From contig QPGO01000082.1 of NCBI GenBank assembly GCA_008632985.1, positions 62,001-126,000 of the forward strand: a stretch of 64,000 bases of DNA. The letters run 5' to 3'. The notes beneath the pieces are model-generated. The model did no database searches and was not told the origin of the DNA. It worked only from the letters and a program-made list of their open reading frames with translations. Each line of letters opens with the position of its first letter. Positions within the stretch are counted from its first letter, which is position 1. The DNA is from Psammoneis japonica. Its lineage: Eukaryota. A program made the translations under genes and the position numbers. Below, piece by piece: positions 4,721 to 47,177 of this stretch.

Positions 4721-4729
4721 CCTTGTGAT

Positions 4730-5290
4730 TTCGTTGTCCAAAGGGCAATCAAGCCCCACCAATGCTTGCTGGAGTGCACTCAACTTGAACGCCAGCAGTG
4801 ACACATCGCCTTCCATCACAAATCCCATCATTTCTACTCCCACTCACATTTTGGCACCAAAGCTGTCGTAAATCTTGTCTTGCATTTTGCAGCAACCGAA
4901 AACAAGATCATCAGCACCCAAAAAATGCGGAGCGCCATCCACAAGTGTTCTCTGAGGCACCCGACACTTGATCAGCGTCGCCAGGACACAACCAAATCGT
5001 CCGAGTTGCGTTCAATCCGTGTCGTGAGCTTTCGATCACTCCACGTTCCAGCGCCACAAACAAAAGTTGGAATCCTTGTTCAAGAAACGTCCGCGCACAA
5101 GAGCTCCAACATTCAACATCCTTTCCTCGCGCTTCGTCTGGCTGACCACATTCAAGTGGTGCAGGCAAACAGGTGCCTGACACTGCCAATTGTAGAACAC
5201 AAAACAACCCCGCAGGTCCAGCTCCCACAATCACGACGCGGGGCTTGCCTGATGATTCTGTCATGCGGTTGTTTTCAATGCCCGCCTTTG
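4730..5290 (-). pseudogene. FAD/NAD(P)-dependent dehydrogenase fragment (copy 2, TpA-mutated)
   Basis: KPRVVIVGAGPAGLFCVLQLA. Collinear with 490-1020. Confidence 0.75.
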
Positions 5291-5899
5291 AGAGATTTTT
5301 GTTCTTAACATTTTCATCCAACTCCAATCGCCCCGGTTGATGGCACATTTTGAGTTTCTTGGCAACAGATGGCAACATGTTTACGTCCATAACGTGAGAA
5401 CATCCTTGACAGCACATTCTCCACAGATTGCGTCTGAGATTGAGTCGCTTGGAAAGAGCTGTCAAGACTGGGATGTAGAATGTTCTTTTCCCACTCCCAA
5501 CTGGTGTGTGTGTGTTGGGGTGTTGGATCCGTGGGAGGGTGTTGCATGCAGCATGAAGAGACGCATGACCTCCACCGGAAGATCAACCCACTTTTCTACA
5601 ACAGCAAGACGAGCTTTGCAAGTGGTGTCAGTGAACACAACTTGGCTTTGTCACTTTGGCACTGCCCATGCTGATCTTACAATGCACTGGAAGGCGGCAG
5701 CATCCGGCTCCGCCACTGCATGTGCTGGTTCTGCATCGACTGTTTTTGACATTGAGAGAGAAGTGCGTGAGAAATTCAGCAAAACACACCGCAGCCATAG
5801 ACAACTTCGGAACGTAGACTACCTTGAACGCTCTTGATGCTTTCCTGCAACTTGGAAAGCAACTTTTAAAGGCATGTCACGTCGGGCTCATCACTGACA

Positions 5900-7575
5900 T
5901 GCTCTCGGAAGTGACTCCTGGCTGGTGTGTTGAACTTTTGGCAAGCTGCAACCATGCATGCGGAATGTGCGTGCTTGATGTGGACCAACCATGGCATGTA
6001 CTTGACAAACAATTGGATCTTCCCCCCTTTACATCCTTGATGGCAAAGCCCCTAGATCGGCAATTTTCGCTCGCAACGAATCCGCCAGCTCACTGACCAT
6101 GGCCCGATGCCACCATCTCTGCCTCTGCATCCTCATTTTCCTTGTCTGCCAGAGGAACTTGAAGAAAGAGATTAAAAACCTTGTCCATTTGGTCCACGGC
6201 ATCCTTGACGGCTTTCAAGCAGACCAAATCTAACGGAGTTGCGTCACCCCCTGTCTTTTGCTTTCTTGACGCGTTTGCATTCATTCTTGGCAGCCTTGGC
6301 ACAGGCAAAGAGAGAAGCTGCCACACGTGGCATGCTCAAATCATTCACCCAGGTGGCTTTTAAATTGCAATCTCTGCAGGAACCAACTGCCAGGCAATCT
6401 CACTGTCCTTGTCAATCACACCACTAGAATCCTCCAACGTCTTGTCGGTTTGTGCAAATCTTGTCCATGGTTTGAGCTCTCCTTGGCAGCTCTCATGGCC
6501 TTTAGAGCACAACTGAGTGGATTTCTAAACTGTGAGCCTGCCACCAAGCAATGACAAGCATGGCCTTTTGTTTTGGTTCAAGACACGCCGCTCGCAAGGT
6601 CAGAAAGTTGAGGCTGAGAGCCGAGACTCTTCAACATTTTCTCATCGTTGACATTGAGAAAGCGATTGCGGATCCAGGAGTTGCAAAAGACCCTTGTCGG
6701 TGGCTCCCTGGGATTGAGCAATTTCATTCTCGTGAAGGGGAAGGTCGAATTCATTCCAAAGCAATGCACGTCGATGGTGTCACCCAAGCACTTGCGAGCC
6801 ACAGCGGAGCATTCCCGATGCCTTCCTGGCCTTCCCTCTCCCAACTCCTTTCCATCCCACGTGGCATCTTGTTCCAAATCAATGCCGGGTTTAGAAGCTT
6901 TCAATGGACAAAAGTCATTGTCATCCACTGGGCCTCTTTTTTGTCCACTGAAGAATGCCGCGATCCTCGTCAGTTTGACAGGCAAGTCTCTTGGTTCTCA
7001 GCGTGAGCACCAACTCGACAATTTCAAGCATTCTGTTGCACGGGGGTCACTTGGACCACCGGCCAATGTTGAGCGCGTCTTTCTCGTAATGGCACACAGA
7101 TCCATGTTCATGTCCTGACACTTCTCAGCAATCTTGTCATCCACGTCGCTTAGTTGCGAATGTCTCTACCGAGTGTCCCAGCATCCAAGATGTGGCAAGA
7201 CATGTTTGAGGACATCGCAATGCACGAGAGTTTGCAACGTGCACACTGTCTTAGATGGCAGGACCGCAGTGCAGCTGCTGACTGACTTTCTTTTTGAGCT
7301 TTTGAAAGGGTTCCTTTTGACGTGTTTTGAATTGTAGAGAAAAAATCGTTTTGTGAAATGGCGTGGAGTGAAGCAAGATGAAGATGTTTGATGCGGTGTC
7401 GTTTTCCATGCAATCCCATGTTTCTTTGAAAGGGCATGCAAGCAGCGGGCGACCACGCATCGATGGGAGAGGTGCCAAAGACAACAAAAAAGGCAGCGGC
7501 AAGGGACAAGCGTGACCATGGTGAACATTGCGAAATTGTGGAAGAAGGTTTGTGCGCGCACGACGATTCACTCAC
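5900..7575 (-). pseudogene. Degenerate gene-like sequence with signal-peptide-like N-terminus
   Basis: ORF at 7575 has a hydrophobic stretch (LSLAAAFFVVFG...DAW) followed by broken frames. Family not recognised. Confidence 0.3.
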
Positions 7576-10500
7576 TCACGCGCGCATTTTGGGCCATTTG
7601 GTGACGCACAGATCACAGACCAACATCGAAATGCAATGGATGGATGGACGGCCGGAGCGGATGGACCGGACGACACACGCCGCAGTCAGCCAATCCAAAG
7701 CAGCACTGGGACAGAGTGTCTTCCCATGAACCATTTGGAGCCAAAATGACCCATTGGCACGTGTTTCTGTTGATGTCATTTTGAGGTGAGGCCAATGCCG
7801 CTTCTTGCCGGTGTTGTTGCGGGACATGCTTGGCAGAGAGCATGGTCTCTCCTGCCTGTGTGGCTGCATGCCAGCAACCCAGGCAACACTCCCACTCTCC
7901 ACCGCAGCAAAGAAGCACCCAAAATTTAAAAAGGGGTTTTCCTTGATGTCATCTTCTAAAATTTGAGCACAATCAATGTGGTGCATGTGGGACATTTGAA
8001 GACATCAAACACACACCTTTTTCATCAAGCTGAGTGGCAAAATTCTTCCCCAATGGACAAAAGAAAGATGATGAGAGAGCTGTGTCTGACTCTTTCTAGG
8101 TGTTGTTTGTGTGCATTTGTTTTCAACTCACAACACTTGTGACTGGACATCATGCATGTTCTGACATTGTGGGGCTCCCTGATGAGGCCTCCCTTTTTTC
8201 AGTGTTTTTCTGTTGTTGCGTGTTGTGCCCAGCAGAGCACACCATCGCCCTTGCTTCTTCTGCACCACCACCTCATTTGTGTTGTTTTCTTGGAATGGTG
8301 CCGCAATTGTCTGAAAAATCTGCACAAGGGACGGGGCAGTCAGAAAACCTTGCACATCTGCACTGCATGTGTGTGGCACCCAACTCTGACACCAGAAGCC
8401 TTCTTTGTCACCTTGCTGCCAACTGTTGCACGTGGTGCTGGCACAGACTGAGTCTTTTTGCATTGCATGTGGATGGGACCCAGATCTGACAGAAGCCTTC
8501 TTTGTCACCTTACCAGCAACTCTGAAAATTGGCCACAAGCATTTTGTGGTCAATTGAACAAAGTGCAAAATGGCTTGCATTTGCACACAAACAAGAACGC
8601 CAGCGATGGGGTCTGGTCATTGTTGCTTGTGTGCATGTCAGAGGCAGGACAAATTGAGATGCACCACCCAACAAAGCACAAAATCATTTGCTTGCACTTC
8701 CCTTGCATGGAATGAAAAAGTGGCCAGTTTGTTTTTGTGGCCAATTTTCCTTGTCACTGGCTTGCTGCCAACTGTGGCATGCATTGCTGGTGCAGACAAA
8801 GCCTGCCAGCTGCCTGTGGTCAATGCTGTTTTGTTGGTGCTCCAAAAGAAAGGCCAAGCTTTGTTTTCTTGAAGCACCAGGCCATTGTCCTCAACAGCTG
8901 GTCCTTCATCTTTTCATCTTGCTGTGTGTCTGTTGCTTTGTCACACCACACCCCACAACCACCAACACCAACACCTGTCTCTTCTGTGGTGTGTGACAGT
9001 CCAAAATGCCTGCACTCCTGAGCCACTTTTTCCTTTTTGCAGCATTGCCCAGCACCTCAAAAGCACACATGCTCTGTCAACAGTTGAAAGCCATTGCCTC
9101 CAAATGGATGCAGCCCGTCCTGGTGATGTGGGTCCTGGCAACAATGAGTTCATCCCTCCTCTTTTGACAAGCCTCCACAGCAGCCCAGTTGCTGGACCCA
9201 GCATGCACACGCCTTTTGTCAGACAGTCCAGCCCCACTCGCTCATTTGTTTCCAGGGAAAGCCACTGTTCAACCTCATCCACAGTTTTCTTGTTCTCCCT
9301 TCTGATGATGGCATGTCTGCCCTTGGAGAGGGTGTCCCTGTGCCAGACATTCCAACAAGATTGTGCGGTGGAGATGTTGGCAACACCACTTTGTTGCTCC
9401 AGCATCTCAGCTGCTTCATGCCCTGTTGCTGACTCCACTCCTCTTCACTTTCTTTTTCTGATGACTTGAAATCCTGCTCTTGACTTGGGTGCACCTCTGC
9501 TTGGTCTTGCACAAAACTTGCATCCCAGCACAAATTTTTGCAATTCCTCCCACATGCTTGCCCAGCACCGGGCTGATTGTTTGTCCCTTCTGCGTGCATG
9601 TGCCAACACAGGATCCACTCTGACTTTTCTTGGGTCTACATTGCTGTCTCCACAGAGTCCCTGCCCTTGTCTCTACATGTGTTTTGCAGTTGATGTCATC
9701 AGGCAGGTGTGCTGACCACATGCTCATGCAATGACTGCCTTGTTGATGTCTGCATGAGTGTGACATCACCATCTCAGAAGCATTTTCAGCAGCCCACCCC
9801 ACTCTAGATCTTTTTTTGAATCTGTGTGTGCTTCAAAGCTCTGCACAGCAGCCAACCTGCTGCTGAATTTTTGCACACTTGTGCATCTCCTTGCAAAGTG
9901 GGTGCATCTTTTTTCCCCCACAGGAGGCTCCAATTGTCTCTAAGATGCCTGTGAAAACATCACGTTCAGATCTCCACAGGGTTGCCCAAATCACTTGGAT
10001 TCTTGCCAAGCTTTTCCAAGTCCTTTTGACACTCTGTCATGGCAGAGAGGAGCTGCTGGATGCCTCATGTGCGTGTTTGTTGTGTGGTGTCATGATGGGT
10101 TTCCCATGGCCATTTTTCTCCTTGGTTTGACACCAAAATGGTGTGAAAATGACAAGGCCACAAGCAACGTTCAAGCATGTGCAAGGGAAACGGATTGATG
10201 TCTAACTTTGCTGGGTGGTCGTGACTTTGTTGTGGCAATGTCCTTGGACCAACAATTCACCATGCTGCTTCCATTTCCTTCTGGTCTGGGAGCATCATGT
10301 TTCCCTTCACCCAACAACAGCGCCTCCCTTCCTTTGGACAAAAAGACAGAGCTGTCGCATGCAACAAGTGCCATGTGTTGGCGTCATTCTCTCCTGTGGT
10401 TTCGCGCAGAATTGCATTGTGCATTCCAGCTCGTTGACTGGAGTCGTCGCGTCGTTTGTTCCGGGGCACTGTAGAAGAGAAAAAACAAGAAAGAACTGCC

Positions 10501-12236: not shown

Positions 12237-12559
12237 TGTACGATGTGATGAGTTCGTTGGGATTTGCGTATGTGTTTGAACGATGTTTGAATGAGTAGTC
12301 GTTTTTTGTGCGAAGAATGCAACGGAGTTCGGGACTGTTCATGGCGGCGGAAGTGCCGAAGACATCACTTCTGCCCGAGCAGCTGTTTGAAATCGGCGAA
12401 CATCGAAAGTGCGTTGAAATCTAAGATGGCCACAAAATGCGAGAATTTTATATAATAGCACGTTCTGTTATTTAACAACTTTCAACGTAAGTTCAACGGA
12501 GCCTCAACGCAAAGAAGGATGATGCTCATCTCTTCTCTGGATGTTTGCTTGCTAGGATG

Positions 12560-15380
12560 TCTGTGACATTCGAGATTGTTGTTCTCCCTCCATCGCATCC
12601 CATGCTTTTGAAAATCCGACGCCCCAGCGTGCATGTCTTCCCAAGTCTTCCTCCATGATGTGACGCCGCATCAGTTGCGTGTTGACTTTCCTCAGAAACA
12701 AAACACAAAAGTTTCTGAGCGTGGGAGTCATGCTAAGACTTGTTCTGTGGGGCTTGTGGCTTTTTGTGCTGGGCCACCATCTGGGTGCTCTCTCGTCCTT
12801 GTTTCGCATCATGCAGGGGAGCTGGCTGGTGTGGGAGCCGCTGCGTGTTTGCTCGATTTCTCAAATGTTGTCTTTCTCTTCAGCCACACTCAGCCAGTTG
12901 AGAGCATGGTTGTCCAGCATGCTCATGAGCAAAGATGTTGTCTTGCAAAATCTCTCTCTCTTTTCTGGGGAGAGGCACAGACTTGTTGTCAGCTCTGCAG
13001 CCAGTGCGTGGTTCTGGTCATGGCTGGTGCAGCTGTCACATGCCAAGTTGAGCTCAGCAACAAACCAGCATGTTGTTGCAGTGTGAGCATGCACAACCCA
13101 CCTCTAAATGACCAATTCTTGGCAAGAGCAGCAAGCTGCATCATTTGCATTTTTCTTGCTGCTGGGATGTCTCCTGTCCCCATCACTTTTCTAAAGCAAG
13201 TGCAACATCTGTCATTTTTCTTTGCAGTTGCTGAGTGCTGGACTCTTGCACTCTGGCTTCCAAAGAGTCTTCTTTTTCCTTTTTCAGTTTTTCTTTTCAT
13301 TTGCAGGCAGGCCAACAAGAGCAGTGTCATGCATTTGAGAGGTGTCTGTGAAGAAAGACATTGTTCAACCAACAAATGCACCTTGTGCAAGCATGTCTAA
13401 AGCCACCATGCCAACTCCTTCCCATGACCTTTCTTGTGAAACAGCGGGCTTTGTTGTTGATCAGTCACAGAAGAGCATGTGGGCATCAGCAGCAAAAACA
13501 CCATCACACAAGTCATCCTGATTTGTGGCTTTGATGTTTTGTGTCTCCATGAGAAAATGACAGAGAAGACAACCTCTGAAAGTTGATGAAATGCACATGT
13601 TCTGTGTGAGAACTACAATGAAAACAGAAGAGAAGCAGCCTTTGCCACAGCATTGAGCTGCATTGTTGTGCATTTTTTCTCATGGCTGTGATGCAGCTGT
13701 GTGAAGGTTTTGTGCATTTTTAAAAAGGTTTTGAATTTTGAACATGCATGGCCAGGCTGGCAGATCTCAGCACCAGAGTTCTGGTCTCAGGAAGAGCTGG
13801 TGAGATCTCACTCAGCTTGCAAAATGTGGTGTGCTCCTCAGTGCAAAGGTTGTCATCAACGTCAAGCTCTCTTGTGTCGCCTCCACAGGCTGATGATTTC
13901 TCTTGCCTGCCCAGACCAAAATGTTGCAAAAAGAGAAAATCCACTGTGACATGACAAGTTTTTGATGTGCTTGTGCTCTCCAACTCCCTTTGCCAGGTGC
14001 TTCTTGTCACTCTGTGAAATTTTAAAAGAAACTGCTGTGCTGTGCTCTGAAAAGGCAAATGATGAGCAAAAGAAGAACTTTGCTGTGCCCTGTGTGGGAA
14101 GCTGCTGCTGTTGATGGAGCTCACACAACCATGAAAGAGGAGGCCAGGGGGGTGCAAAGGAGATTGGGGAGTAGAGAGAAGAGCCTGAGACACTGCACTT
14201 GAGATGAGAGAAGTGCAAAAACACAGAAGCAATGCCATTTGCAGCCACACTTTTCCTGGGACATTCTTTTGTGGCTTCTTAAAGATTCAACAACTGCTGA
14301 GATGTCTGAACTCCTTTTCCATTTTCTCGTCATCTTTCCTGCTTTGCTTTTCTTGTTTTGTTCTTTTCCATTTTTCACATTTCAAGTTGCTTCTCTTTTG
14401 TTTTGATTGGAAGAGTGCTGCAGCCAATCATCTCTGACCGACAAAGATGCTTCCGAATCACCACTTCCTGTGGTCCTTTTGCGAAGACTGCCATCAAACG
14501 GAAAGTGAGACAAAGAATGAGTCTCAAGAGGATCAGTCGAAGAAGATGCAGTGTCGCTTTTGGTCAGGAAAACAATCTGCACTGGTTTTTTTTAGAAGTT
14601 GGTGTGCACTGCTCTGGCTCTCGCAAACTGCACATGATGGCCCAACTGTGATCCCAAACTGGACAAAGAAGCGAAGCGGAAACGCCTGGCCTGCAATCAG
14701 TGACACCACAATCAACCCGCAAAGCACAATCGCTTCGATGAAGACGAGAACCATGAGAAAATGCCAAGAGGCCTTGAGAGGATCTCCACAAACCAGATTG
14801 CCACCAGTCATGAGCAAAGTGGTCATTTCGTTGTTGCCGCCATCGGCACTTGGTTTCATCACCTTGGGAATTCCATTCACGCAGCTGGCTGCAAACTTGG
14901 CCATCTCCGCACCGCTTGCAAGACACGCCAATCCTGCCGTCAGGCCCAAAGAAAGATGCATGTGACCCTGTGTTTTGGTCAAGGTGTCATCTTGAAGCTT
15001 GTGAGCCAGAATGACGGCAATGATGCATCCACAAATGGCAAGGACACCCGAAATGACAATGGGGACAAACGACAAAAATGTGCCTCGGGCGTGTTGGGCA
15101 AAGATGCCAGATGGCACTGATGCAATGCAACTGCCCAAGCTCACAAAAAAGACAGAGAGAGCGGCACCGAGGCCTCCGAGGAAATGGGGTTGGTCATGAC
15201 ACCGCATCTTGAGTGTCAAAATGCTTGGAGCAGCCGTCCTTCAGAAGCAACGAAGGGATTGTGTGTGCTCAGAACAAAACATCAACAACTTCTGCAATCC
15301 GCAACGCATCTTCAACAGAAGATTTTTGAGTCGTGGAGTTCTCTCGTGTTCGTGCGGGCTTTCATCAGGGGCTTTGAGCT
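12560..15380. other. TpA-depleted domain 2
   Basis: Few TA dinucleotides, mostly in YTAR context. CpG is also nearly absent from about 13.0 to 14.4 kb. Contains the mutated V-ATPase copy. Confidence 0.85.
14680..15207 (-). pseudogene. V-type H+-ATPase proteolipid (subunit c family) copy with Tyr->Cys/His changes
   Basis: FVPIVISGVLAICGCIIAVIL (consensus GVLAIYG), QGHMHLSLGL (GY.HL), LVFIEAIVLCGLIV (EA..LYGLIV). Four-TM proteolipid layout. ORF track shows the frame open to 14533. Confidence 0.8.
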
Positions 15381-15429: not shown

Positions 15430-15800
15430 GTAGCACCGATAGGGTTAGGGCTACTTACTTTCACCTCTCGGCGGCCTCGGGCGGGCGTTACTATGTACTA
15501 ACTCTCTACTATTAGCTAGCTAGCTATGGTACTGTAGCTACCGGTAGAGAGTAGAGAGTAGAGCATGTTCCTCTCTGCTGCTACTCTAGCTAGAGAGATG
15601 AGGGCTCTAGAGAGGACACTGCTTAGATATGACTTACACCAATACCTATATGACACGTTCAGAGTGGCCCCACCTTGTAGCCTCTCTCTCTACGTACTAG
15701 CTAATGGAGAGAGAGCGCTATGTATGCAACACTAGAGACTATAAGACACTCCAGTAGTTTCAAGAGCAATAAAACTCACGCTAGGGCCCTAGAATTTCCA
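15430..15800. repeat. CTAG/TAGAG-rich low-complexity patch
   Basis: attagctagctagcta, gtagagagtagagagtagag, ctctagctagagag and ctagggccctag, lying between domain 2 and the PLAC8 3' end. Confidence 0.7.
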
Positions 15801-15907: not shown

Positions 15908-16967
15908 TTACACAATAATCGCTGCAATATGCGAAGGCAATCCAGTTTCTGTGCAACACGCCGCTACGTACGTGTCGTAATCGGCCGTGTGTCGCGCCAT
16001 TTGTGTCAAGGTGCAACATCCACAGCAAACAGAGCAGCACACGTCCTCGCACCCATGGCAGCGACGTTCTGGAATGGAGTACTTTCGGCGGATAAACTTG
16101 CGCGTGACAATCAGCAAGTAGAGCATGTAGAACGCAAAGGCTGTCTGGAGAATGCAATCCAAAACATAAGACACCATTGAAACCACGGGAAGATCTTGTA
16201 AGGCATATGAATCAGCATGCAGAGGAAGATACGACCTGTACAGGCTCTTAAGGAAAGCATTCAAAACAATAAAGGCGAAGAACACAAACAGAATGTTTCG
16301 AAAGGTGTTTGTTCGCTCGCCGACACGGCCCTCTTGCCCACACCAAGTGAGCCTCATTCGTGTCATGACTTGGGCTAGAGAGACTTTACAAAATTGATAA
16401 TACCGAGAAGAAGATAGTCGTTAGAAAAGATGTCGTTGCAAAAAGGAATGACATCACGCGCTCCTGTTCCGGACGTACTTGGGTGACACCAGAGAGTGAG
16501 GCAAAGCAACGGGTGGCAACATCCGAGACTGCAGCAATCACACAACCCATCTTTCCAGCGTCCCGTAGGAATTTCAAATGCAGGACCGCCAGATGGCCCT
16601 TCTGAAGACAAAGGTACTGAAAAGGTTTGGCCTTCTTCGACTCCTCCGCTCGGCTGAAAGAATAAAACGAGGTGTAAGAAGTAAGAAAGCGAGACTCACA
16701 CGCGAGACAAGTTTTGAGCTCCAATCTCCTAAATAAGCAATGCGCCCATTTCCACAATATCCGACGTACCACTACAACTGTTATGGGCTTTCCATCCGCA
16801 GAGGTGGCCTCAAAGGTGTAACCTTCTGACAGTACCGACGGCGCAACCACCTCAACCAGAGGCGTGGCTGTTGCCGAAGGGATAGCCGCTGATTCTGCTG
16901 GGGCCTCATCCAAGGTTTGGTATGCTGTCCCTGGGGCCGGATCGTTGTCTGTGGTATCAGCTCCCAT
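15908..16967 (-). CDS. PLAC8-family Cys-rich membrane protein (3 exons)
   Basis: GRWKDGLCDCC, AQVMTR, RRKYSIPE...CEDVCCSVCCGCCTLTQMARH. GT-AG introns at about 16655-16769 and about 16377-16478. Confidence 0.85.
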
Positions 16968-17766
16968 GGTTCTTATGCTGAACGCGGTCGGCTAGAGTGC
17001 TCTCTCCGTTGTGCAATGGTTGTGACGTGTTTGTTGCGTGCCATGGTTACGTTGAACGTGTTCGTGTACGCGCGTTGCGCGTTGCGGCGAAGCGAGCGAA
17101 GCGAAGACCGTTCGTCAGTCAGTCGGTCGGTCGGTCGGTCGGTCGGTCCTTCGTAGGTTTCCAAAAACTAACCGACAAAGAGAGTTGCTAGGGCCCTAAT
17201 TCCTCACCACGGAAATCCTCACCAAATCCTCACCACGGAAATTTCGTTAAATGTTTTGGCGTCACATGCGAACTGCCACATCACAACATCAACGGCTGTC
17301 CGAGCACTGGAACAAAGTCCATCACTTGAGCAAACACCTCAGCCCCGGCCATTGTCTGCATGCACAGCAACGTCTGCATCTTCCCTCTGTGGCGCGCCGC
17401 TTTACAGCGGCACCTCACGATTGTCACACTTTTTGTTTCAATTGATGTGCACTGGAGTCTCTCGAGTCATCCATGGTGTTGTCTTGTTTTTGGCTCTAGT
17501 TGAGTTGCCTTCCAATCTGCAAAGGCGGTTTGAGACACGACCTGAATGACTTTGGGTCGTTGTCAGGAACGACTTGCACCTTGACAATTTGGGGTTGTCG
17601 TTAGAAGACCATGCTTTGTGGCCACCAGGTGTCAACGATGCGAGTGTCACTCACTGAAGACTCAAATCCGCTGGCGTCAATGAGTGTGTTGGTTGCGCTG
17701 TTGTGTGGCCGGTGCTTTGCCATTTTGTTCGTTCCCTGAGATTCTGCTGGTAGATTGTAGTGTGTC

Positions 17767-18726
17767 TTGCCCATGCCGGCAGCACGGCAACACATTTCTG
17801 CTCTGTCAGACGACCCTCAAGACGACCCTCAAGGCAGCTTGCACCATGCCACGACCACACGGCTCCCCCACGACCCTCACAAGATTCACGTGAGCCCTCA
17901 TCACGAAGCATTTTATGAGAGCAACATGAGGGCGTTGGCCATCGTCGATGACAACGCCGAACCTGGCTGCTCATTGGATGACGACGCCAACCGCAAGCAG
18001 GCCAAAGTCGAGCCCGGCTGCTGCTCACTGGATGATGACTCTGTTGTCATCACTCTTGAAAAAACACCTGACTTTTCTCTGATGTCCACGCTTGGCCTTG
18101 AGCATGTTGCCGACCTGGCAAAAATCGGTCGCTCTGTTGCTGTCCCTGCTGATGGTAACTGTGGATGCCACGCTGTGCTGAAGGGACTGGAGGAGGCTGG
18201 CTTGATCAAAAAAGGCACTTGCAACAAGGACATGACTGGTTTCCGAAAACACATGCATGGTTTTGCTGTGCAGAACTTTGAGGGCTTGTGCGGTCGGCCC
18301 TTGGACAATGGTGCAGGTGAGGACAGAGGTCTCTCGGCGGCTGTGTGCGATGGGAAAGTTGTCGGGGAATTTGTTGTCGACAAGAGGAACGAGCACAATG
18401 CTGGTGCAAGCCAGAAAGCTCGATTTCTAAAACTGCTTGCTTGCATCTGGAAGACCGGGATTGACTTCAATTCTGGTTGTGGCAAAGGTCATTGGCATGA
18501 TGCGAATGTGTGCAGCACCATTGTCACTCTCAAGCATGAGCGATCGATTGTCTGCTGTGGAATGGGAAGCAACAAAAACACGTCCATGCACCATCATTCC
18601 AATGGAAAAGTGCAGTTGTCATTTGCAAGAGACACTTGGCTCTCTCCTCCGGCCAATTCCATCACCATGACCCACGACGGCGGCGGCCATTTTGAATGCT
18701 TAAGTCCAGCAAGTGCAAAAGGAAAG
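17767..18726 (+). pseudogene. OTU-like cysteine protease (deubiquitinase-fold) domain inside the MULE
   Basis: VPADGNCGCHAV (OTU DGNC catalytic loop) and a distal HFECL His motif. Probable intron at about 18727-18831 links it to the transposase part. Confidence 0.7.
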
Positions 18727-19186
18727 GTGTGTTGTTGTGTGCTCAGCCAGAGTCATTTTATTTTAAAAAAAGCAATCTCACAATTTGCTCCCATTGTGCT
18801 TGCTTGCATCATCAATGCATTCTCGCCTCCAGCCGTGAAGGATGTGGTTCCTGCCGTTGCCACTAAAGCGAGTGCCGAAGCTGACAACAATGAAAAGGCA
18901 GCGGCAAGTTTTGAGGTGTGCCACAGTTTGTCATGAAGCACAAGGCAATCTCTCACTCTTGTTTTTCTTGTTGCTGCAAGCTTTGCTTGCCAACCACCAC
19001 AACAATGAGTTGCGTTGCTCGGACGAGCACAACGTTGCACCATCCTGACTGGCTCGATCAGTGCAGTGCAGACACCACAACGCATGACGAGCTCCAAATA
19101 CAAAGCAAGGAACTGCAAGGCCAAAACTGGGTCACAACTGGCTTGGAGGATGAGATGCGACAGCACGCTCCTTCCAACAAGGAGAC

Positions 19187-22072
19187 ATGTCGCGAGAGAG
19201 ACAACGAGCATTGCAAAATGGCTTTCGAGCAAAAGGCTGCTCTGCTGTTCCCCATCGGCGACAGTTTGCTGGTCACACGCAGCTCGTGCAGGCCGCAAAG
19301 GAATTTCTGGAGATGTGGGGAGCCATGGGAGTGCATGAGCGTAAGACTGTTGGCTGCCACTTCTCTGAAGCCAAAAAGAAAAAGAAGCTCGCGCCACTTG
19401 TTGACCGATCGAATCGACGAAAAGTTGGCCCAACCATGAAAAGCCAGTGCAAATGCCCGTTTGGCATCACGCATGGATTTGTCGAAAAGAAAAAGGATCC
19501 TTTCACGAACAAGTTGAGGCCTGACATTTTCTACAAAGTGAAGACAACAGCAGCAGTGTGTCAGCACACGTGTGAGCTGAACACAGTGTTCCATCGCAAG
19601 GCAAAACAAGCAAGCGGCGGCACTCAACCTAGCTTGGTCGGGCTCCAAAGCATTGCAGAGGATCTCCGAATCAAGCCATCCATGAAAGCAGAAGACCTGC
19701 GCCCAAAACTGACAAAGTGTTTGCCTTCGCATGTTGATGCCGATGCAAAATGTGTCAGCAACTTCCGAAGCCGCGCAGCCACCTGGATTCTGAACAACGA
19801 GGAAGACGAAGAAGTGTCACATGATGATTTAAAGCGACTTACATCTAAGAAACCAATTGCAGCTGATGAGCTGGTTGTGACCGACAGCTCTTTAACCAGA
19901 GTCAATCTGAGAAAAATGCCAAAGAAGACAATGCAAGAAGACGGCTCGACATGGGATGCGCTGTGGTGTTTGCAGGATTTGAAGAAAATGCTGCTCGGTT
20001 TCGACTTCCACTTGAAGCACGATGCGACCGGCCGCCCTGAAGCTGTTTGCCACATGACAGCAGAAATGCGATGTGATTTGATTCGGCATGGTGATGTCCT
20101 TTTTCTGGACAGCCAGAAAAGGCAGCACAACAATCAAGGATGGCCGTGCATTGGGCCCGCCACAAAGGATTGCGAAATGAAAGTTCGATGTGTGACAGAG
20201 TGTGTTTGCATGGAAGAAGCACACAAGCGCTGTTGCTGGATGCCACTTTCTGCTTCCGAAATGGAGCCACGCTGGAGCTTTGACAACACAAGAATGACAT
20301 TTGCAGACCAGCACATGATGCAAGGCTTCGTTGATTCACTTCAAGCTCAAAGGGACCAACGCCTCCTTCAAATCCTTCTCCGAGGAGACCACTGTCACTT
20401 GCTGGAGGAAGTTTTCCCAAGTGAAGAAGGCTTTGGATTGGTGCGCTGCATGCAAATCCGGAATCAACTCTGTGCAATGCTCCAATCCAAAACCCAAGAG
20501 GAATGGGACACTGCGTGCCATGCTGCCAAGGAGGTCATGAAGGCTGATGCCGCAAAACTGCAACTGCTTTGTGCAACTCACGACAAGCCAGAGTGCTGCG
20601 CTGGGTGTCATCTGCGGCAACAGGAAATGAATCTAAATCTTAAGGGTTCTGTTGCTGCAGAACAAAATCATGCAAGCATTGTTGCTCACCTTGGTGCGGG
20701 CGCCAGTTGGTCTGTCGCTGAGCCCATGAAGCACCTGCTTGAGCGCCAGGAAATGCTCACCCGCAAGCGGAGAAAAGAGGAGGACAATCTTCACGTGGTT
20801 TCCTCAAGGCACAAGTCTGGCAACCAAGGTCAAGCTGGTGTGGATGATGAGTTGGCAAAGAGCACTTTTTCCAGGTGTGCATGCAAGAACTTGCATGTCG
20901 CTGAGATGAACAAGAGCAGGAAGCTGCAAGCGAAGATGGCAGAAAACGATGCAATGAATGTTTGGCCTTGTGGCAAAGAGGCAACCTGCAAAGAATCTGT
21001 GTTGATGCAACAAGGAAAGCGATGCCCATGTCGCGAGAGAGTGGCCTTTGGCCATCAATGCAGACACGAACTCAAAGCCGACGGCAAGCTCGACACATCC
21101 AAATGGTCAAATCGATGGCTGTCGGAGCGAGCATGCTCAGTGGCAATGCCAAGTCATGCTCACACATTGTCAGATGTCAAGAACAACGAGAGGATGTCCT
21201 TGAACGATGGAGATTCGAACGATGGAGATTCGTTTTACGACCACCAAGAGCCCCAACAACATGGTTCGCCAACCTTGGATGCCGACCGGGACAACACCTC
21301 AGATGAAGATGACGACAGAACTGTGTCAGGTGATTTGGCGGGAGACAACTACAATGAAGAGGACCAAACACCGCATCTCACCTGCCAAGACTTGACATTT
21401 CAAGCATCCAACCTCATTGGGTTAGTTCAAGGAGACCAACCCAACATGGCCGCTCTTTCCTCACCACTCCAAACAATTGCAGACAGGGCGAGACGCGGGT
21501 TGAGAATCCACGCTGCCTTTGACACTGCAATGTCAGAAGTTGTTGACAATCCAGCAGCTGCCTCACTGCCTGGCATCCTGCAAGCAATGCCACGAGCGAG
21601 CCGCCAAAGACGCAAGCAGTCCCGACAAGAACTCCGGCGTGACGCGATGCATGCATCAAATGGCTCCAACCAATGCCGTGCTACATCAAGCAACCGTTGC
21701 TCGATAAGATCTTCCAATGATGGCGAATGTCTTCAACCACCAAAGAAAAGGAAGAGTGCATGCAGTGCTTGTGCAAAACCCAAGCACACCACCCGCACTT
21801 GCCCAAGCCTCCACAAGTGCAAGAGACCACCACTGGCACCCGGATCACGACCAGAACGCGAAACGTTGCAGGCCCAACTTCTGAATCCTCAAGTGTTCCC
21901 TGCAATCCCAAGAGCTCCAACGGATGAGCGACTTATTTCTCAATCAATCAAAAGCGATTCTGATTGGCTGGTTGGTCTGACGGTCACCCAATGCTCAGTG
22001 CAAATTGGTGCGGGCGGGGTGGGAAGGATTCGTGAGAACGGATGGCCGACAGGCGTGGTGAGGATTTGGTGA
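19187..22072 (+). pseudogene. MULE transposase with SWIM and zinc-knuckle motifs (hypermutated, frame open)
   Basis: CKCPF...H WRKY/FAR1-like N-terminal part, GDVLFLDS...GWP.IG, LRGDHCHL, SWIM-like CPCRERVAFGHQCRH, knuckle CSACAKPKHTTRTC. Only 3 Tyr in 961 aa. Confidence 0.8.
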
Positions 22073-22202
22073 GGATCTCCGTGGTGAGGAATTAGTAACT
22101 CTCCCGACAAACTCCGAAAACTCAGTTGCAGATTTGAAGTTGTGAGTTGAGAGTTGTTGAGTTGTGATGAGGGTGTGTCGGGTGTGAGTTGCTGCAGTCG
22201 AA

Positions 22203-23392
22203 ATGGTGTCGTCTTCGCCGTCTCGAAAGCGCTCACTGGAACAGAACAGAGAAAGAACAAATGACAGAAATCAGAATGTGAAAGCACCCCGGCATTCTCC
22301 CACAATCCCGGTCTTGGAATCAGTCGAGGAACTTACCAGCGCCTCCTTTTGGGACGATTTCCATAGCTACTCCGCTGTCCATGTTCCTCGAGAAGTTGTC
22401 AAAGCGTTCATGTCGAGAGTTAGCGAAACTGCTGCCAACACGTTGCCGGAAGAGGGAGGCCAGAGCGAAAGAAAATTCAGCTGGATGGACATACAACGAT
22501 TGTTTCAGTCGCTAGAAGAAAAGATCAATCAACGTGGTGTATCGAGAATTCTAGCAAGTCTCAGAAGAAATCAAGTGAAACTGGCATCGCTTCTGACGAT
22601 TTCCTGAGGCCTCACTTGTCGAGTCCCGATGAAGTGGGATACTGCAGCTTTCTTGTACAACACGACAAAGGTGCCATGAAAACGACCCTCGATCGGGTGC
22701 CCATATCAACCTTACCATCTCCGTCTTTAATGAAATTGAGATATGGACCTTGTCTGTGGTTCTTCTTTGGACGAAATTCTTCATCGACACTATTGGAAGG
22801 TCGCCCCGAGCACACAGACTCGGTCTCACATGACGGCACATGGCATTATCAATTGTCTGGATGCAAGACCTGGTATCTAAGACCCACGAACGAGTTGCTG
22901 GATACCTTGAAGAGAAAGCACGTGAGCGATGATTCGTGTGCTCACTGGTCGTCGACACTAACCTTTCGAGTCGACTGTCAGGAGGGTGATGTCTTATTAG
23001 TGAATACTCGTTTGTGGTGGCATCGAACTGTAATTCCGCATAACCAGAGTGTTCCTTCTGTTTCGTATGCACGAGACTTCTTCCTTGATCCGCAATCAGA
23101 CACCGACGCTACGAAACAGAAGAATCCAGAAAAAAATGCCATTGAAGCTATGGAAGATACAATGACAAACGTGGATGGATTGTACGCAGCGAATGATATC
23201 GAACAAGGCACGGTGATCTTTTCAGAAAAGGACATGCCAAATTGCGAATTGCACAGATCATCTACGAATCCGAATTGCGAAATTGTACAGCTGGAAGATG
23301 GGACTGGGGCAGTGGTTTCGTGTCGAGACATTAGGGCCGGAGAATTCTTTTGTGTACCAGAATCTTCCGACGAAGAGGAGGAGGAAGAGTGA
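22203..23392 (+). CDS. JmjC/cupin-like 2-oxoglutarate oxygenase-fold protein
   Basis: GRPEHTDSVSHDGTWHYQLSGCKTWYLRP...GDVLLVNTRLWWHRT gives an HxD...H triad. A frame break at about 22550-22615 is an intron or indel. Confidence 0.7.
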
Positions 23393-23617: not shown

Positions 23618-26600
23618 TCATCTCGTTGCCACAACTCCTCCACGAAACCTTTTGATCCTTCTTCCATTCTTGTCCAAAATGAGCTCGACAACTTTCGACT
23701 TCTTGAAAACGCGTCGAGGGGCAGCATCTTTTGCTGTTTGGCCGTCCCCAGGTGGCAAATTTGGTACATCAATCGTTGTATTTTGAGAGAGATAGTATAT
23801 TTCTTTTCCTGTTCCGTAGAAGACTTTCACCTTGACCAACGATTCAACACCTTCCTTAACTGCTTCGTCCACTCCTCGAAAGTCACCGTATACACTTGTC
23901 CTCAAGAACAATCCCGGAGGCAATGGAACCGGCTCTTCCCTCACTATCGCCTTACCATTTCGTCTCAATCTCACTTTCACAAGCACTGGATCTCTCACAA
24001 AGACGTATTTGGTTGTCTCAATGTTGACATCAGCGTCGAAAAGAGGCATGGTGGATGCTTTGATCTGGAGCGCGATATCGTTCTCGTAGCTTGCTTGTCC
24101 ATATCGTTGATAATCATTATTCTTACAGTAGTCATGAAGATAGTTCGGAGGATTATCAAAGACATGACAGTACTGCGGGATGGACTTGGTCAACGCTATG
24201 TATGTGCAACACGTAAAGCGTTCATTGACAGCTCCTACGGGCGCACCAAGGTCTTGCATGTACGTCAATCCAGAGACGAAGTATTTGTTGCCTTCGCATC
24301 CAGGGACACACTTCACAGGGTCAAAGTTTGGGGGCGTATTCCCGATCAGATCGGACCATTGTTTGCATGAACTTGAGGCGGCACAATTGGGATCGTTGCC
24401 ATTTCCGTCTCCGGATGGGTACTCATCGTTCAGCTCAAATAGCGAGGACCAAGCTCATGTACTGCGACGAAAGCTCCGTCTGGGTGAGTAGAAATCGTGG
24501 CAATGTTTTTGTAAGGATATCCAGCTCCTCCGTACGTGTAATCATCACTATGGATCACCACGGTTTGGAGGTTGGCACCGACGGAAAAACACTTTGTTGC
24601 CAAACTCTCTGTAATGGCGACGTCACAGCACCTGCGGTGAAATGTTTTGAATGTTTAGCGAATCAGCAAACGAATACTTTCAAAGGCACTTCAGAATATG
24701 TTGGCAATGACTCACAGCAGACGATCCACTCCCTCGCACCCGAAATGACAAAATGATTCACTCAGTTTTGAGGGATCAACAAAAAAGACGTTTAGCTGAT
24801 CAACTTCTTTTCCAAAAGCGCTGTAGTTTTCAAAAAAGCGATTTGTCTTTTTGACCTGTCTACGCCATGCCTTGTGCGTGGTTGTGTTGAATGCCGAGCC
24901 CACAAAAACAAGATTGATTTTGTTTGTGTCAAATGGTGTCCCGTAGATGTGTCTTAGCGGGTAGCATTCAGAAGAAGCCATGCACGCACCGTTTCGACAA
25001 GTGTTCGAAATGCAGTCATCGTCTTCGCTGCAAACCATTCCCGTTTTTCTAGGTGTCGGAACAGAATCGAGGAATACACTTGATCGTGCCTCAGAAACTG
25101 CAGTATACGAAGCCGTCGGTGACAATGTTGACGTTGGCGTTGGCTTCATAGTTGGCGAAGCTGTAGGTCTGCTTGTTGTTAGCGAAGATGTTGATCCAGA
25201 AGTTGGAGGTGATGTCGGTGGTGATGTCGGGTCGGCAGTAGGCTGACGGGACGGTCGTCTTGTAGGAGAAGCAGTTGTTTGGGTCGTAGGTAGTCCTGTG
25301 GGCAATGCTGTTGGCGGATCGGTTGGAGACAATGTAGGTACAGTAGTTGGGATTGGGCTAGGCGAACGCGTTGGAGAAGATGTAGGTACTGTTGTTGGTG
25401 TCACTGTTGGCTTGGACGTGGGCCAATTCGTCGTTTTTTTGGTGGGCGATGGCGTTCTAATCAGCGTGGGCAATGGGGTAGGTGAACGTGTTGGGGAATA
25501 TGTAGGCTCAGCCGTCGGGGACACCGTGGGTTGCTTAGTCGGCGATGGGGATGGAATTGGGGTGGGTGATGGGGTAGGATTTCTGGACGGGGACGTCGTT
25601 GGGGGCAGTGCCTGAGGCGCACTTGTTGTGGAAGTCGCTGTTGATTGCGCTGCCTGAGCTGCAACGTGTTGCTCTGCAAACTGAAGTGCACGAGGAAGAA
25701 CGTCGATGGCCAATGGTTTGTTTCTGTTCGGGCAGTTTACGTGAGTACCGACTCCCGGGATACTAGTAGAGTGACCAGCATTGTAAAAGTTCCAAGCATA
25801 AAGAATAACGAAACCGGACCCGAATGGAATCACGCTCAATATGTGCTTTTCTTTCGTTCCATATATTGGTGTGCATGCTGATGCGTCCCCGCACGTGAAA
25901 AACTTGGTAGTTGAAAGGCATTCCACAGAGCTCGGTCCACCTTGAAACACGGTACCCGCAGCATTTCTTGAGTTGAGTTGTACGAACGTTCGAATATCAC
26001 AGTAGCCAGCGTCGCCGATGTTCCAGCCAGGGAATATCAAATTTATGAAGGCAAGACTACTCGTCTGCAATGACATCAACAATAGTACACCGCCGTTCTT
26101 GACATACTCCCTCAGGGTCTTCTCCGCTGTAGCCCCCCAGCCGTCAACGAAGCTAAGAGTTGGTTGAATTGGAGGCATGATGAAAGCACTAAAATCTTTC
26201 AATTTCAATGCCAGATTTGGAGCTGCGAACGTCTTTATTGACGTGTCAATGTTGTAGTTGTTGAAGTCTCCGTTTGATTGTGTCAAGTACTCCAGGCTCG
26301 ACAATACATTAAGAGTGTCATCGTTGCACTGGCCAATGCCTGGCCCATTAAGTCCGTCTTGAGCATATATCCCCACAGCTGAAGAAGACTGCACCTTCGC
26401 GTCGCTTGCAACCATTTCACCACCGCCACATGAGCAGCAAGCATTGATCGCGAATGTACCCAAGTTCTCGAAGATGTTTCCATATTGTTGGCAGTTGTCA
26501 TCAATCGCGTACCAATCGCAATTGTACTGTTTACCATCCCCATCGTGCCAACCTATTGGGGAATCGCGGCATACCGTAGAAGAGGGGGCGCTGGGCACGG

Positions 26601-27570
26601 TTGGACGTGGGCTTGCCCCCTGAGCCGTAACGTGTTGTTCTGCAAACTTTAGTGCCCGAGGAAGAACTTCGGTGGCCCATGGATCGTTTCTGGAGTAGCA
26701 GTTAACGTGGGTACCAATGCCCGGGATGTTGATTGCATGACCTCCATTGTAAAAGTTCCAAGCATAAAGAACAACAAAACCGGAGCCGTATGGAAGCAGA
26801 GTCACTACTTGCTTTGCCGTCGTTCCATATATGGGTGTGCACGCAACGTCCCCGCAGGTGATTAACTTGGTAGTTGAGGGGCAATGAACATAGCTGGGTC
26901 CGCCCTGAAATGTAGTACCAGCTACATTTCCTGAGTTGATTTGTATGCGCTCTCGACAGTAGCCATTGTCACCAATGTTCCAGCCGGGGAAGATCGAGTT
27001 CACGAAGTCGAGACTCCCCGGTTGCACCGACATTGTCAACAAGACACCGCCGTTTTCAACATATTGCTTTATGGCGTTCTGTGCTGCAGTCCCCCAGCCA
27101 TTAACATAGCTAACAGGAAGCGGAATAACAGGCATGATAAAAACACCAAAGCCTTGCAGCTTCGATGCCAAATTGGGATCAGCGAACGTCGTAATTGATG
27201 TATCAATTTTGTAGTCGCTAAAGTCCCCGTTCCTTTGTGTCAGGTACTCCAGACTTGACAATACATTAAGAGTTTCATCGTTACAATTCCCTAACCCTAT
27301 CCCACTGCTAGGGCCATTGAGTCCCTCTTCAGAATAAACGCCCACGGTCGGAGCAGAATGAACGTTGTCGACCAAGACAACAAGAAGTAGAGCCAACAGG
27401 ACGAAACGAAAAGCTCGAAGGGAGGGAGCTACGGAATTCGTTGTTCGATCAACTGGTGATCCATGCTGTAACTGCATACACCTATCGGTGAACATGAGGC
27501 GTTGCTTCGTTGGACTTTCCTCCATGGTGTTTGTCGCTCGTCGCTTGGCGTCGCTTTTTGTGTTTCTCAT
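23618..27570 (-). CDS. Secreted multidomain protein: two tandem repeated domains, Cys-rich module, Pro/Thr stalk, C-terminal peptidase M64-like metalloprotease
   Basis: Hydrophobic signal (FVLLALLLVVLV), two paralogous domains of about 240 aa, PT-rich linker, then KINLVFVG, YGGAG and VAVHELG(H)SLFELNDEY. Apparent indels near 24712 and 24449. Confidence 0.75.
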
Positions 27571-27810
27571 CGCCGTTCATGGTCACAGCAAAATTCTTCG
27601 AAACAAAAGGGCTTATGATTTTTCTTTTTACAGTGACCTCTCGTAAATAATAGGTAGGACTGTACTGTGCAATAGACATTATGGCAGGCGTAGAAAACAA
27701 CTACCGACCATTATGACATATGCCTTAGTTTTTTAGTACATGTGTGTCATATCGGGAAAATACGGGATATTTATGCCCTTTTTTAATGCCTGGCGTCCGA
27801 ACGATGTCAT

Positions 27811-28336
27811 GTAAGGGCTGAGATGAGCGCGCGGATAAAGGAAGTGGTCAGTCCCGCCTACTCGTGACTCAGTACTTTCCTACGGTGAAAATTGCGTAGA
27901 AATCCAAAGATGACAAAAACGGTCCGATAACTTCCGCTAACAATAATATCAACTGCATGTAATGTACATTCATTGTTCTTTAATATGTGAATGAACCACT
28001 TTAAGCGTTGGATGCAGTTATTTTGACGAATTGGAAGGTGCTCCGAACAAAAGACGAATCGTACGGAGCACCGTAGCTTTGTACGTAAAGTAGTGCTAAG
28101 CGTTATTTTGGCGAAGTTCGTCAAAGTAACTGCATCTAACGCTTAAAGTGGTTCATTCACATATTAAAGAACATTGAATGTACATTACATGCAGTTCATA
28201 TTATTGTTAGCGGAAGTTATCGGACCGTTTTTGTCATCTTCGGATTTCTACGCAATTTTCACCGTAGGAAAGTACTGAGTCACGAGTAGGCGGGACTGAC
28301 CACTTCCTTTATCCGCGCGCTCATCTCAGCCCTTAC
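27811..28336. mobile_element. MITE/foldback element with near-perfect inverted arms of about 220 bp
   Basis: gtaagggctgagatgagcgcgcgg...tttgacgaa (27811 to about 28030) is the reverse complement of ttcgtcaaa...ccgcgcgctcatctcagcccttac (about 28116-28336). Spacer about 85 bp. Probable TA target duplication. Confidence 0.9.
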
Positions 28337-34930: not shown

Positions 34931-35389
34931 GAACTCAACTCAGCAGTTCTCACGCCCCAAAGTTTACTATTTGCCTCTCTCTGTCGGTTTTGTTTGCAAC
35001 ACTGTCCCATGAATATAACACTGTCCTTTTTCCTTCTTCCCTCCTTCTTTTGCGTGTGGTGTGTCTTGTGGCAACAAAAACGATGTTCATAAAATACCTC
35101 CAAAATTAAAATTGAAATAAATATAATGAGCTACATTCACTAATATGCTATAAATATTTTATATCACAGAATGCTCAATCGCTTATGTGAAAAACTTTAT
35201 CAACAACATATATAAATATATAGCGGATTAAACATCGATGAAAATCATACAAGAGTCAACAAGTCGCATTCGCCAAACGCGCACTCCGCACCAATGCACA
35301 TGCAACGGACCACCTACAGGTTACAGGCTGCGCGTCGAATCTATGTAATGGTCTGCGACCGGCACTGCAGAGTGGCTGGCTGGCTATGA

Positions 35390-47170: not shown

Positions 47171-47177
47171 ACATCTG

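Follow-up and report, generated by a model that had tools for sequence, protein, structure and literature searches.

The DNA analysed here, a window of 64,000 nucleotides from a contig of the diatom Psammoneis japonica, contains at 17180-22103 a transposon of 4,924 bp from which the dinucleotide TpA has been almost eliminated. The element is flanked by an 8-bp direct duplication of its target site (target-site duplication, TSD), the two copies of which are identical, and its terminal inverted repeats (TIRs) match at 41/42 positions of their arms, both as an earlier first-pass annotation had stated. Its parts are listed below by position within the window.

17172-17179: left TSD, CCGACAAA, 8/8 identical to the right TSD
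17180-17237 (+): left TIR, with a 42-nt arm at 17196-17237 that is 98% complementary to 22054-22095
17761-18936 (+): upstream open frame of 391 codons, first ATG at 17773, possibly an OTU-type cysteine protease
19005-19259 (+): N-terminal part of the predicted transposase gene, in another frame than the remainder, with an ATG at 19005, placed by alignment to the relative P0003
19154-22072 (+): stop-free frame of 972 codons, a predicted Mutator-like DDE transposase in which tyrosine (Tyr) is replaced by cysteine (Cys) or histidine (His)
19258 (+): 1-bp deletion (frameshift) relative to sibling copies, four sibling contigs having an extra C behind this position (depth 182/289)
22054-22103 (-): right TIR, with its 42-nt arm at 22054-22095
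22104-22111: right TSD, CCGACAAA, 8/8 identical to the left TSD

Architecture and identity of the element

Both termini of the element begin with GAGAGTT, the left with eight additional bases, and the left terminus has TTGC where the right has TTAC. The large frame was first reported as 961 codons, the length obtained when counting from its first ATG at 19187, and it remains open over all of them, running on into the right TIR, inside the arm of which its stop is found. The relative P0003 aligns to this region in two different frames, with residues 65-140 placed at 19023-19259 and residues 128-1007 at 19220-21946, such that the frames join at 19220-19259. This two-frame alignment, together with the extra C in the four sibling contigs, therefore indicates a 1-bp deletion in the window copy, which cuts off the first ~80 codons, starting at the ATG at 19005, from the remainder of the gene. 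Judged by these alignments, the transposase gene is evidently not intact.

The large frame has eight relatives at 28-44% identity in a word-indexed search, and 2,797 at an E of 0.001 or better in a profile search, which together form a family without a curated name. The profile PF21056 (RNaseH-like, ZSWIM1-3) weakly matches 4/9 family members, the best E of 6.4e-4 being below its cut-off, and the window copy itself scores an E of 0.11; none of the family members matched the Pfam MULE or SWIM models at the thresholds applied. The D, D and E columns are retained in the alignment of the relatives (LFLD, F[AG]D and AEQNH), and downstream of them lies a C-x-C...C-x-H zinc-finger pattern, which reads ...RCPCRERVAFGHQCRHEL... 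in the window copy and has no Pfam SWIM match. Mutator-like elements (MULEs) have TSDs of 8-11 bp, and the element resembles these and the ZSWIM-type transposases in its long TIRs, 8-bp TSD, D...D...E arrangement, zinc-finger pattern and weak PF21056 similarity. It differs from MULEs in that its family lacks a Pfam MULE or SWIM match, and in that its upstream frame has no counterpart in the 50 related loci described below. Hence the TIRs, TSD, D/D/E columns and C-x-C...C-x-H pattern fit a Mutator-like element without proving membership; the profile evidence for this assignment, which was proposed at first pass, is weak.

The upstream frame at 17761-18936 had no Pfam match at E<=0.1. A feature search placed 20/30 of its nearest atlas clusters in a set in which 35% of members carry PF02338 (OTU), with a score of 0.93, and this lead makes an OTU-type cysteine protease a possible identity.

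TpA is depleted while CpG is at the normal level of the family

The element retains 33 TA dinucleotides in its 4,924 bp, an observed-to-expected ratio (o/e) of 0.11, alongside 217 CG (o/e 0.67), with CA and TG at o/e 1.43 and 1.71 respectively. By comparison, the unaffected 1-kb bins of the window have TA o/e values of 0.4-0.9 and CG o/e values of about 0.8-1.2, and the related loci, comprising 50 transposase genes from metagenome contigs, have a TA o/e of 0.43-0.70 and a CG o/e of 0.41-0.82. Therefore TA alone is abnormal in this element. The first-pass statement that TA was almost gone was accurate; CpG, which had been described as rich, is indeed common, but on this comparison is at the normal level of the family.

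The same contrast is found within the aligned coding part, in which the window copy has 5.5 TA, 43.6 CG and 192 CA+TG per kb, against means of 38.4, 36 and 160.5 per kb in 13 relatives. Across the transposase region TA falls short by 33 per kb and CA+TG are in excess by 32 per kb, in effect the same amount, with no reduction of CG. The protein encoded by the 972-codon frame is correspondingly unusual, with 3/972 Tyr residues (0.31%), 4.4% Cys and 3.9% His.

The change runs from TA to CA or TG

Tyr codons begin with TA, and 24 alignment columns have Tyr in at least 60% of eight relatives. At these columns the window copy has Cys at nine, His at seven, Phe at three, Trp at two, Lys at one and Tyr at one. 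Hence 16/24 have the one-step products of TAY>TGY and TAY>CAY, in agreement with the earlier proposal that the protein was killed by missense changes of Tyr. Other conserved columns are largely retained (Cys 13/15, Trp 9/11). The CpG-type product was present at only 2/46 conserved Arg columns, and 20 in-frame CGA codons, each one CpG transition short of TGA, are intact, such that the claimed uncoupling of TA loss from CpG loss holds in the coding sequence as well as in its composition.

This Tyr loss is, on the alignments, not a family trait. When 142 family proteins were aligned to the Tyr columns the window copy was the most extreme, retaining Tyr at 1/22, and none of the 20 proteins with the lowest Tyr retention had more than six Cys+His at these columns. 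A screen of the best 150 of the 2,797 relatives for further edited members identified three with less than 1% Tyr (P0198, P0197 and P0066), and no second edited family member was found among these 150. P0066 was considered as such a case and rejected, as its Tyr had mostly become Phe (10/24) rather than Cys or His.

A pair of paralogues outside the element provides a polarised comparison. The copies at 507-1032 and 4737-5278, which derive from a gene of FAD/NAD-binding type (a GAGPAG motif is present in 4914-5582 (-)), are direct repeats with 79% identity and 33 transversions in about 520 aligned bases; the first is TA-normal, with a TA o/e of 0.55 in its 1-kb bin, and the second is TA-poor. 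Of 17 TA in the first copy, 12 are CA or TG in the second and one is kept, with two changes in the reverse direction, and the CG counts are 28 vs 28. Only the downstream paralogue has been edited, therefore the process spares one copy of a duplication. The evidence from columns, paralogues and the balance of TA against CA+TG thus supports a TpA-specific loss that runs from TA to CA or TG.

Such changes have a predictable effect on reading frames. Over six frames, TAA and TAG fall from 17.4 to 4.1 per 1000 codons while TGA rises from 18.4 to 23.7, leaving all stops down only 22%; the erasure of stop codons suggested at first pass therefore applies to TAA and TAG, but not to TGA, and is slight in total. 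Therefore the 972-codon frame is not a by-product of stop depletion. Rather, it is an old coding frame that has been preserved, because TA>CA/TG changes cannot create an in-frame stop.

TpA loss follows the preceding base

The retention of TA in TA-poor islands, of which the element is one, was calculated for each four-base context relative to the window background. It was highest at TTAA (0.74), followed by CTAA (0.44), CTAG (0.23), GTAA (0.17) and CTAC (0.14), and was lowest at ATAA (0.07), GTAC (0.04), ATAG (0.03), ATAC (0.007) and ATAT (0). Uniform retention was rejected (chi-square 226, 9 degrees of freedom). A multiplicative model in which the two strands are hit independently, with survival set by the base 5' of TA, fitted the data (chi-square 3.07, 6 degrees of freedom, p 0.8), with per-strand survival of 0.06 for ATA, 0.22 for GTA, 0.51 for CTA and 0.86 for TTA. 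The order of contexts was identical in CG-poor and CG-moderate blocks, and the CG-poor blocks were lower in each of the five most-retained contexts; therefore the slow TA contexts keep declining where CpG has also been lost.

TpA-poor islands across the window

Four TA-poor islands (TA o/e 0.06-0.11), with edges that are sharp at 250-bp resolution, sum to 26.8 kb, or 42% of the window. They are listed here with two gene-like features that lie within them.

3501-10450: TA-poor island; 3501-7950 is CG-moderate with host-gene-like pseudogenes, 7951-10250 is CG-poor
6581-6997 (-): fragment of a cysteinyl-tRNA synthetase, in TA-poor and CG-moderate sequence (PF01406, E 1.7e-17)
12501-15250: TA-poor island, CG-poor at 13001-14300 and CG-moderate on either side of it; includes a V-ATPase proteolipid-like, apparently dead copy
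14536-15240 (-): V-ATPase proteolipid-like open frame of 235 codons (PDB 5vox_S, E 9.4e-10)
17180-22103: TA-poor island, the transposon
41100-53250: TA-poor island of 12 kb, of which 42001-53250 is also CG-poor; TA o/e 0.06, CG 0.19, CA 1.78, TG 1.84

The targets are accordingly of several kinds: a transposon, host-gene-like dead copies, and 14.9 kb of CG-poor blocks without Pfam identity. The cysteinyl-tRNA synthetase fragment continues in another frame, with a HENEIAQ stretch at 6645-6779 (-), and hence reads as a frameshifted pseudogene or captured gene fragment. The TA-poor paralogue at 4737-5278 belongs to the CG-moderate part of the same island, and is counted among the dead host-gene copies. 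In the V-ATPase proteolipid-like frame the conserved AIYG has become AICG, and this frame is probably an edited, dead, extra copy of a host gene. Pfam was scanned with 61 open frames of at least 110 aa, from all TA-poor islands and a block at 35.3-36.2 kb, and with 102 open frames of 62-109 aa from the CG-poor blocks; no significant match was found for the scanned frames of the CG-poor blocks, including those of the 12-kb island. The sole match within these blocks, PF25597 (retroviral SH3-like) at 51328-51582 with an E of 0.0058, was rejected, because about one such match is expected by chance over 163 proteins.

The block at 35301-36200 was not counted as an edited island, being TA-poor by composition: it is C-rich, CCACC-type low-complexity sequence with a GC skew of -0.36, a TA o/e of 0.14 and a TG o/e of 1.96. 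Adjoining the edge of a TA-poor island, 15501-15750 is very TA-rich, with 32 TA in 250 bp. The 12-kb island contains a tandem repeat at 47178-47388 (81-bp unit, 2.6 copies, 80% matches) that is within TA- and CG-poor sequence, and one copy of a 46-nt direct repeat with 87% identity, the copies lying outside (40904-40949) and inside (44999-45044) the island; three sites that are TA in the outer copy are TG or CA in the inner one.

CpG loss is a separate layer

Loss of CpG to TpG and CpA is a second, separate layer present in some blocks only. It affects 7951-10250, 13001-14300 and 42001-53250, in which the CG o/e is about 0.05-0.3 and those of CA and TG reach 1.8-2.0, and it is absent from the transposon. 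These sub-blocks have sharp edges inside the TA-poor islands, and no TSDs or long terminal repeat pairs marking an order of nested insertion were found at the junctions of CG-poor and CG-moderate sequence. Every TA-poor block has a TA o/e of 0.11 or less, while CG spans 0.05 to about 0.8, and no block in the window is CG-poor yet TA-normal. The additional blocks in which the first-pass annotation found both dinucleotides lacking do lack both, for example at 49-53 kb (TA o/e 0.01-0.06, CG o/e 0.05-0.07).

CpG retention in the CG-poor blocks was 0.04 at TCGA, 0.07 at CCGA, 0.10 at GCGA and 0.40 at CCGG, on 3-21 counts per class, therefore the loss is strongest at TCG/CGA. Cytosine methylation (5-methylcytosine, 5mC) in diatoms is reported to be mainly at CpG and concentrated on repeats (PMC5124317), and because of this the decay of methyl-CpG is the simplest reading of this layer. 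The CG-poor blocks with their matching TG/CA surplus resemble such decay in diatom repeats; however, it accounts for the CpG layer only, being unable to remove TA. Nor is CpG loss a simple clock, because the 21%-diverged paralogue has lost its TA yet has CG unreduced. Hence the two layers envisaged at first pass, of rapid TpA editing and then slow CpG deamination, persist as separate losses, but the slow CpG clock does not fit this paralogue or the sharp edges of the CG-poor sub-blocks.

Sibling copies and flanks

Related copies were sought among contigs of one sequencing run, probably of the assembly's source sample, for which the library type is not on record. There were 286 contig pieces at 80-100% identity to the element, of which 83 were at >=99%, 62 at 95-99%, 83 at 90-95% and 58 at <90%; therefore several related copies exist. 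Contig depth over the element was 3-9x the summed flank depth, which is not a copy number. Sibling copies differed from the window at 499 places, 352 of them transitions, and dinucleotide classes were assigned to the 40 best-supported of these. The window had CA/TG where another copy had TA at 8/40, and TA where another copy had CA/TG at 3/40; it had CA/TG where another copy had CG at 12/40, and CG where another copy had TG/CA at 6/40; the other 11/40 were of different types. There are sibling differences at both dinucleotides, therefore the copies diverged at both. One more distant contig keeps W-P-Y-I where the window has W-P-C-I (around 20164). Among the sequencing runs listed as containing this stretch there was none of RNA, which argues neither for nor against expression.

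The right edge of the element is also informative.

22097-22333: TA-free stretch of 237 bp, from the edge of the element into the unique right flank

No 237-bp background window among 34,410 lacked TA altogether, the longest background gap being 186 bp, and the flanking part at 22104-22333 has a TG o/e of 1.54 and a CG o/e of 0.91. On the left, the sequence as far as the TSD has a normal composition, with a TA o/e of 0.71 in the last 500 bp. The right-hand stretch probably represents spill-over of editing at this locus after the insertion.

Other features of the window

The neighbouring genes in the window are long and nearly intron-free. One of them, the ANAPC5-like gene at 36847-38778, has named relatives only in diatoms (Attheya, Cylindrotheca, Epithemia, Skeletonema and Thalassiosira), the best at 52% identity, as expected of a diatom host. 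The frame at 24712-27576 (-), of 954 codons with a PT-repeat match, contains a 676-bp internal direct repeat (25653-26328 / 26619-27285, 76% identity). In otherwise normal DNA, the 526 bp at 27811-28336 match their own reverse complement at 89.6%, forming a large imperfect palindrome, and 56696-57251 is a tandem repeat of a 295-bp unit (1.9 copies, 89% matches).

A probable TpA-specific hypermutation and its alternatives

These data establish the direction of the change, its dinucleotide and trinucleotide specificity, its restriction to regions of the genome, and its independence from CpG loss. The locus is probably a Mutator-like transposon copy that was inactivated, within the nuclear genome of a diatom, by A:T->G:C hypermutation of DNA confined to TpA. 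Such a process would convert A:T to G:C solely at TpA, making TA into TG on one strand, which is read as CA on the other, and would act on bounded islands that comprise transposon DNA, repeats without identity and dead copies of host genes. It would proceed by independent single-strand events on 5'-NTA-3', with a preference at N of A > G > C >> T, and therefore TTAA is almost spared. It would make no in-frame stops while removing TAA and TAG, such that frames stay open as Tyr becomes Cys or His. The most likely candidate enzyme would be a nuclear adenine deaminase acting on DNA, producing inosine that is read as G; silenced or foreign-marked chromatin may be the trigger; and the editing may be fast. 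The TA-free right flank and the TTAC/TTGC difference between the termini would be traces of its action at this locus.

Several observations weigh against this reading. The background for the context analysis is host genic DNA, rather than the elements' own ancestral sequence. Long processive single-strand tracts are described for some deaminases, and no strand runs of TG vs CA outcomes were found along the element (15 runs in 27 events, p 0.72), therefore there is no sign of such tracts here. Differences between the siblings are at least as frequent at CpG as at TpA (18 vs 11 of 40), therefore CpG change is not negligible inside the family. The spill-over into the right flank is a single case, and the left flank shows none. 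Finally, the sequencing run that confirms the window is probably of the same sample as the assembly, and so is not independent.

The pattern might instead be native to the family, were TA avoided for reasons of codon usage, of RNA stability or to escape a nuclease that cuts at TA, in keeping with the mild under-representation of TA everywhere, relatives included; but that conserved Tyr became exactly Cys or His at most of its columns, that the pattern is absent from the 20 proteins of lowest Tyr retention among the 142 compared, that depletion is just as strong in non-coding parts, in all six frames and in host-gene pseudogenes, and that the paralogue pair changed one way, together make this explanation very hard to credit. 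An artefact of assembly or base-calling at modified bases merits as little credence. Some long-read base-callers are known to miscall methylated adenine systematically as G; however, the pattern extends to CpG and follows the trinucleotide rule on both strands, and contigs of the sequencing run, with the reservation about its sample made above, differ from the window at 0-1 letters over 16500-17225, 18951-19226, 19241-19543, 20827-21092 and 22065-22800. A more substantial doubt concerns timing. An edited copy could have moved in trans, in which case the perfect TSD and TIRs would give the age of the insertion rather than that of the editing and would carry no information on speed, and most TA loss may have preceded insertion if a transposase-dead copy with intact ends was mobilised by an autonomous relative. 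We consider this a serious minority possibility: the ends needed by the transposase are intact, the frameshift is already in the window copy, and the sample contains many related pieces, among which close siblings, a few percent apart, would have much of the TA-poor state in common. Against it, the TA-free stretch runs into unique flank, a TA>TG change separates the two termini, and siblings keep TA at the eight listed places where the window has CA/TG. Editing before and after insertion can both be true if it continues across rounds of transposition. Hence the first-pass argument from youth to speed is only partly sustained and falls short of being established: the TSD and TIRs are intact, but the gene is frameshifted and the editing may in part predate the insertion.

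The chemistry of TpA-specific hypermutation can also be construed differently. It is rather unlikely, if not negligibly so, that the target is the thymine of TpA, oxidised enzymatically to 5-hydroxymethyl- or 5-formyl-uracil that mispairs with G to give T>C. Protists do possess enzymes that modify thymine, and 5-formyluracil induces T>C mutations. The data are strand-symmetric, making 5'-NTA-3' with A changed indistinguishable from 5'-TAN-3' with T changed; yet nothing in the window points to thymine, and the only direct study favours adenine deamination as its hypothesis, with an ADAT2-like candidate (bioRxiv 10.64898/2026.01.13.699255). A proposal somewhat less probable again is that one deaminase acts on both A and C, removing TpA fast and CpG slowly, in which case CpG loss would not be passive decay of 5mC. 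The end product is CA/TG for both dinucleotides, the survival of CpG in the CG-poor blocks varies with context (from TCGA to CCGG as given above), and ADAT2 enzymes are reported to edit A and C in DNA, as cited in the same preprint (bioRxiv 10.64898/2026.01.13.699255). However, the context counts are small, fully TA-depleted blocks can retain normal CG (the MULE and 3501-7950), the CG-poor sub-blocks have sharp edges inside TA-poor islands, and CpG 5mC on diatom repeats, as reported, suffices for CpG decay (PMC5124317).

Relation to known mutational systems

TpA-specific hypermutation of this kind invites comparison with repeat-induced point mutation (RIP) of fungi, which it resembles in inactivating repeated or mobile DNA by mutation, with a dinucleotide preference, sharp limits and possible leakage into flanks. 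RIP comprises C:G>T:A changes mainly at CpA, raises TpA, creates stop codons and mutates both copies of a duplication. The direction here is the opposite: TpA is removed, as are TAA and TAG, no in-frame stops are created (the contrast in stop codons was drawn at first pass), and one paralogue (507-1032) was left untouched while the other (4737-5278) was edited. Hyper-editing by ADAR that becomes fixed in retroelements likewise consists of A>G changes with a 5' U/T neighbour, and needs a reverse-transcribed RNA copy. In contrast, the element has the TIRs and TSD of a cut-and-paste DNA transposon, and its non-coding ends and flank are edited. Mutation accumulation in Phaeodactylum tricornutum found a GC>AT bias, in an article in the text of which the word 'transposable' does not occur (PMC6604790), and searches of the literature returned no account of a loss specific to TpA from the repeats of diatoms.

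The closest system is the TpA-targeted hypermutation of integrated giant-virus and virophage DNA described in a preprint on the alga Bigelowiella natans (Mettrop et al. 2026, bioRxiv 10.64898/2026.01.13.699255). In a mutation-accumulation experiment, two viral regions there mutated at about 6e-7 per site per generation, about 1000-fold above the remainder, and 230/231 of their single-nucleotide mutations were A>G or T>C, with TpA as the site of each of these; TpA-poor coding sequences were enriched in DDE-endonuclease and reverse-transcriptase domains; and the authors proposed DNA adenine deamination, with an ADAT2-like candidate (bioRxiv 10.64898/2026.01.13.699255). Both cases involve A:T>G:C changes confined to TpA, giving TpG and CpA, in restricted regions with a CpA+TpG surplus and TpA depletion, and in both mobile or integrated DNA is among the targets, here the transposon, DDE-endonuclease domains being among the TpA-poor sequences of B. 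natans.

A broader proposal, which falls a little short of an even chance in our judgement, is that diatoms possess an enzymatic genome defence that works as RIP in reverse. A nuclear editor would change A to G at 5'-[A>G>C]TA-3' in silenced islands of transposons, repeats and redundant gene copies, spilling over a few hundred bases and killing proteins without stops, and would be a major overlooked force on diatom repeats. The same signature occurs in a rhizarian alga, and therefore such a system, if real, would be old within the SAR (stramenopile, alveolate and rhizarian) supergroup or horizontally spread. It could then be a source of orphan open frames and of 'unclassifiable' diatom repeats. 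Diatoms rank with the most important primary producers and carry many unclassified repeats in their genomes. A TpA-specific editor would account for the failure of annotation on many of these repeats and of the orphan frames, as it leaves Tyr-free, Cys/His-rich proteins and long open frames on both strands. The rule ATA > GTA > CTA >> TTA is a constraint that any candidate enzyme must meet, and because the two layers can be told apart, transformable diatoms would allow a test of the order in which the two silencing marks are set and of what they target.

The B. natans system and the present one nevertheless differ in several respects. The host in the earlier case is a chlorarachniophyte, a rhizarian, and here is a diatom, a stramenopile, such that this work would carry mutational defence from one rhizarian alga, known from one preprint, to a second major lineage. 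The Rho of the virus region was 0.45, whereas depletion here is near saturation, at a TA o/e of 0.01-0.11 over ~42% of the window; rates were measured there, and a footprint is read here; and a DNA transposon and defunct host-gene copies are among the targets here. When the main text of that preprint was searched by term, no description was found of a dependence on the base before TA or of a CpG layer, the words CpG and diatom not occurring in it. A process of this kind is already described for one rhizarian alga, and what is new is its probable occurrence in a diatom, the trinucleotide rule that it follows, the classes of DNA that it targets, and the CpG layer that can be separated from it.

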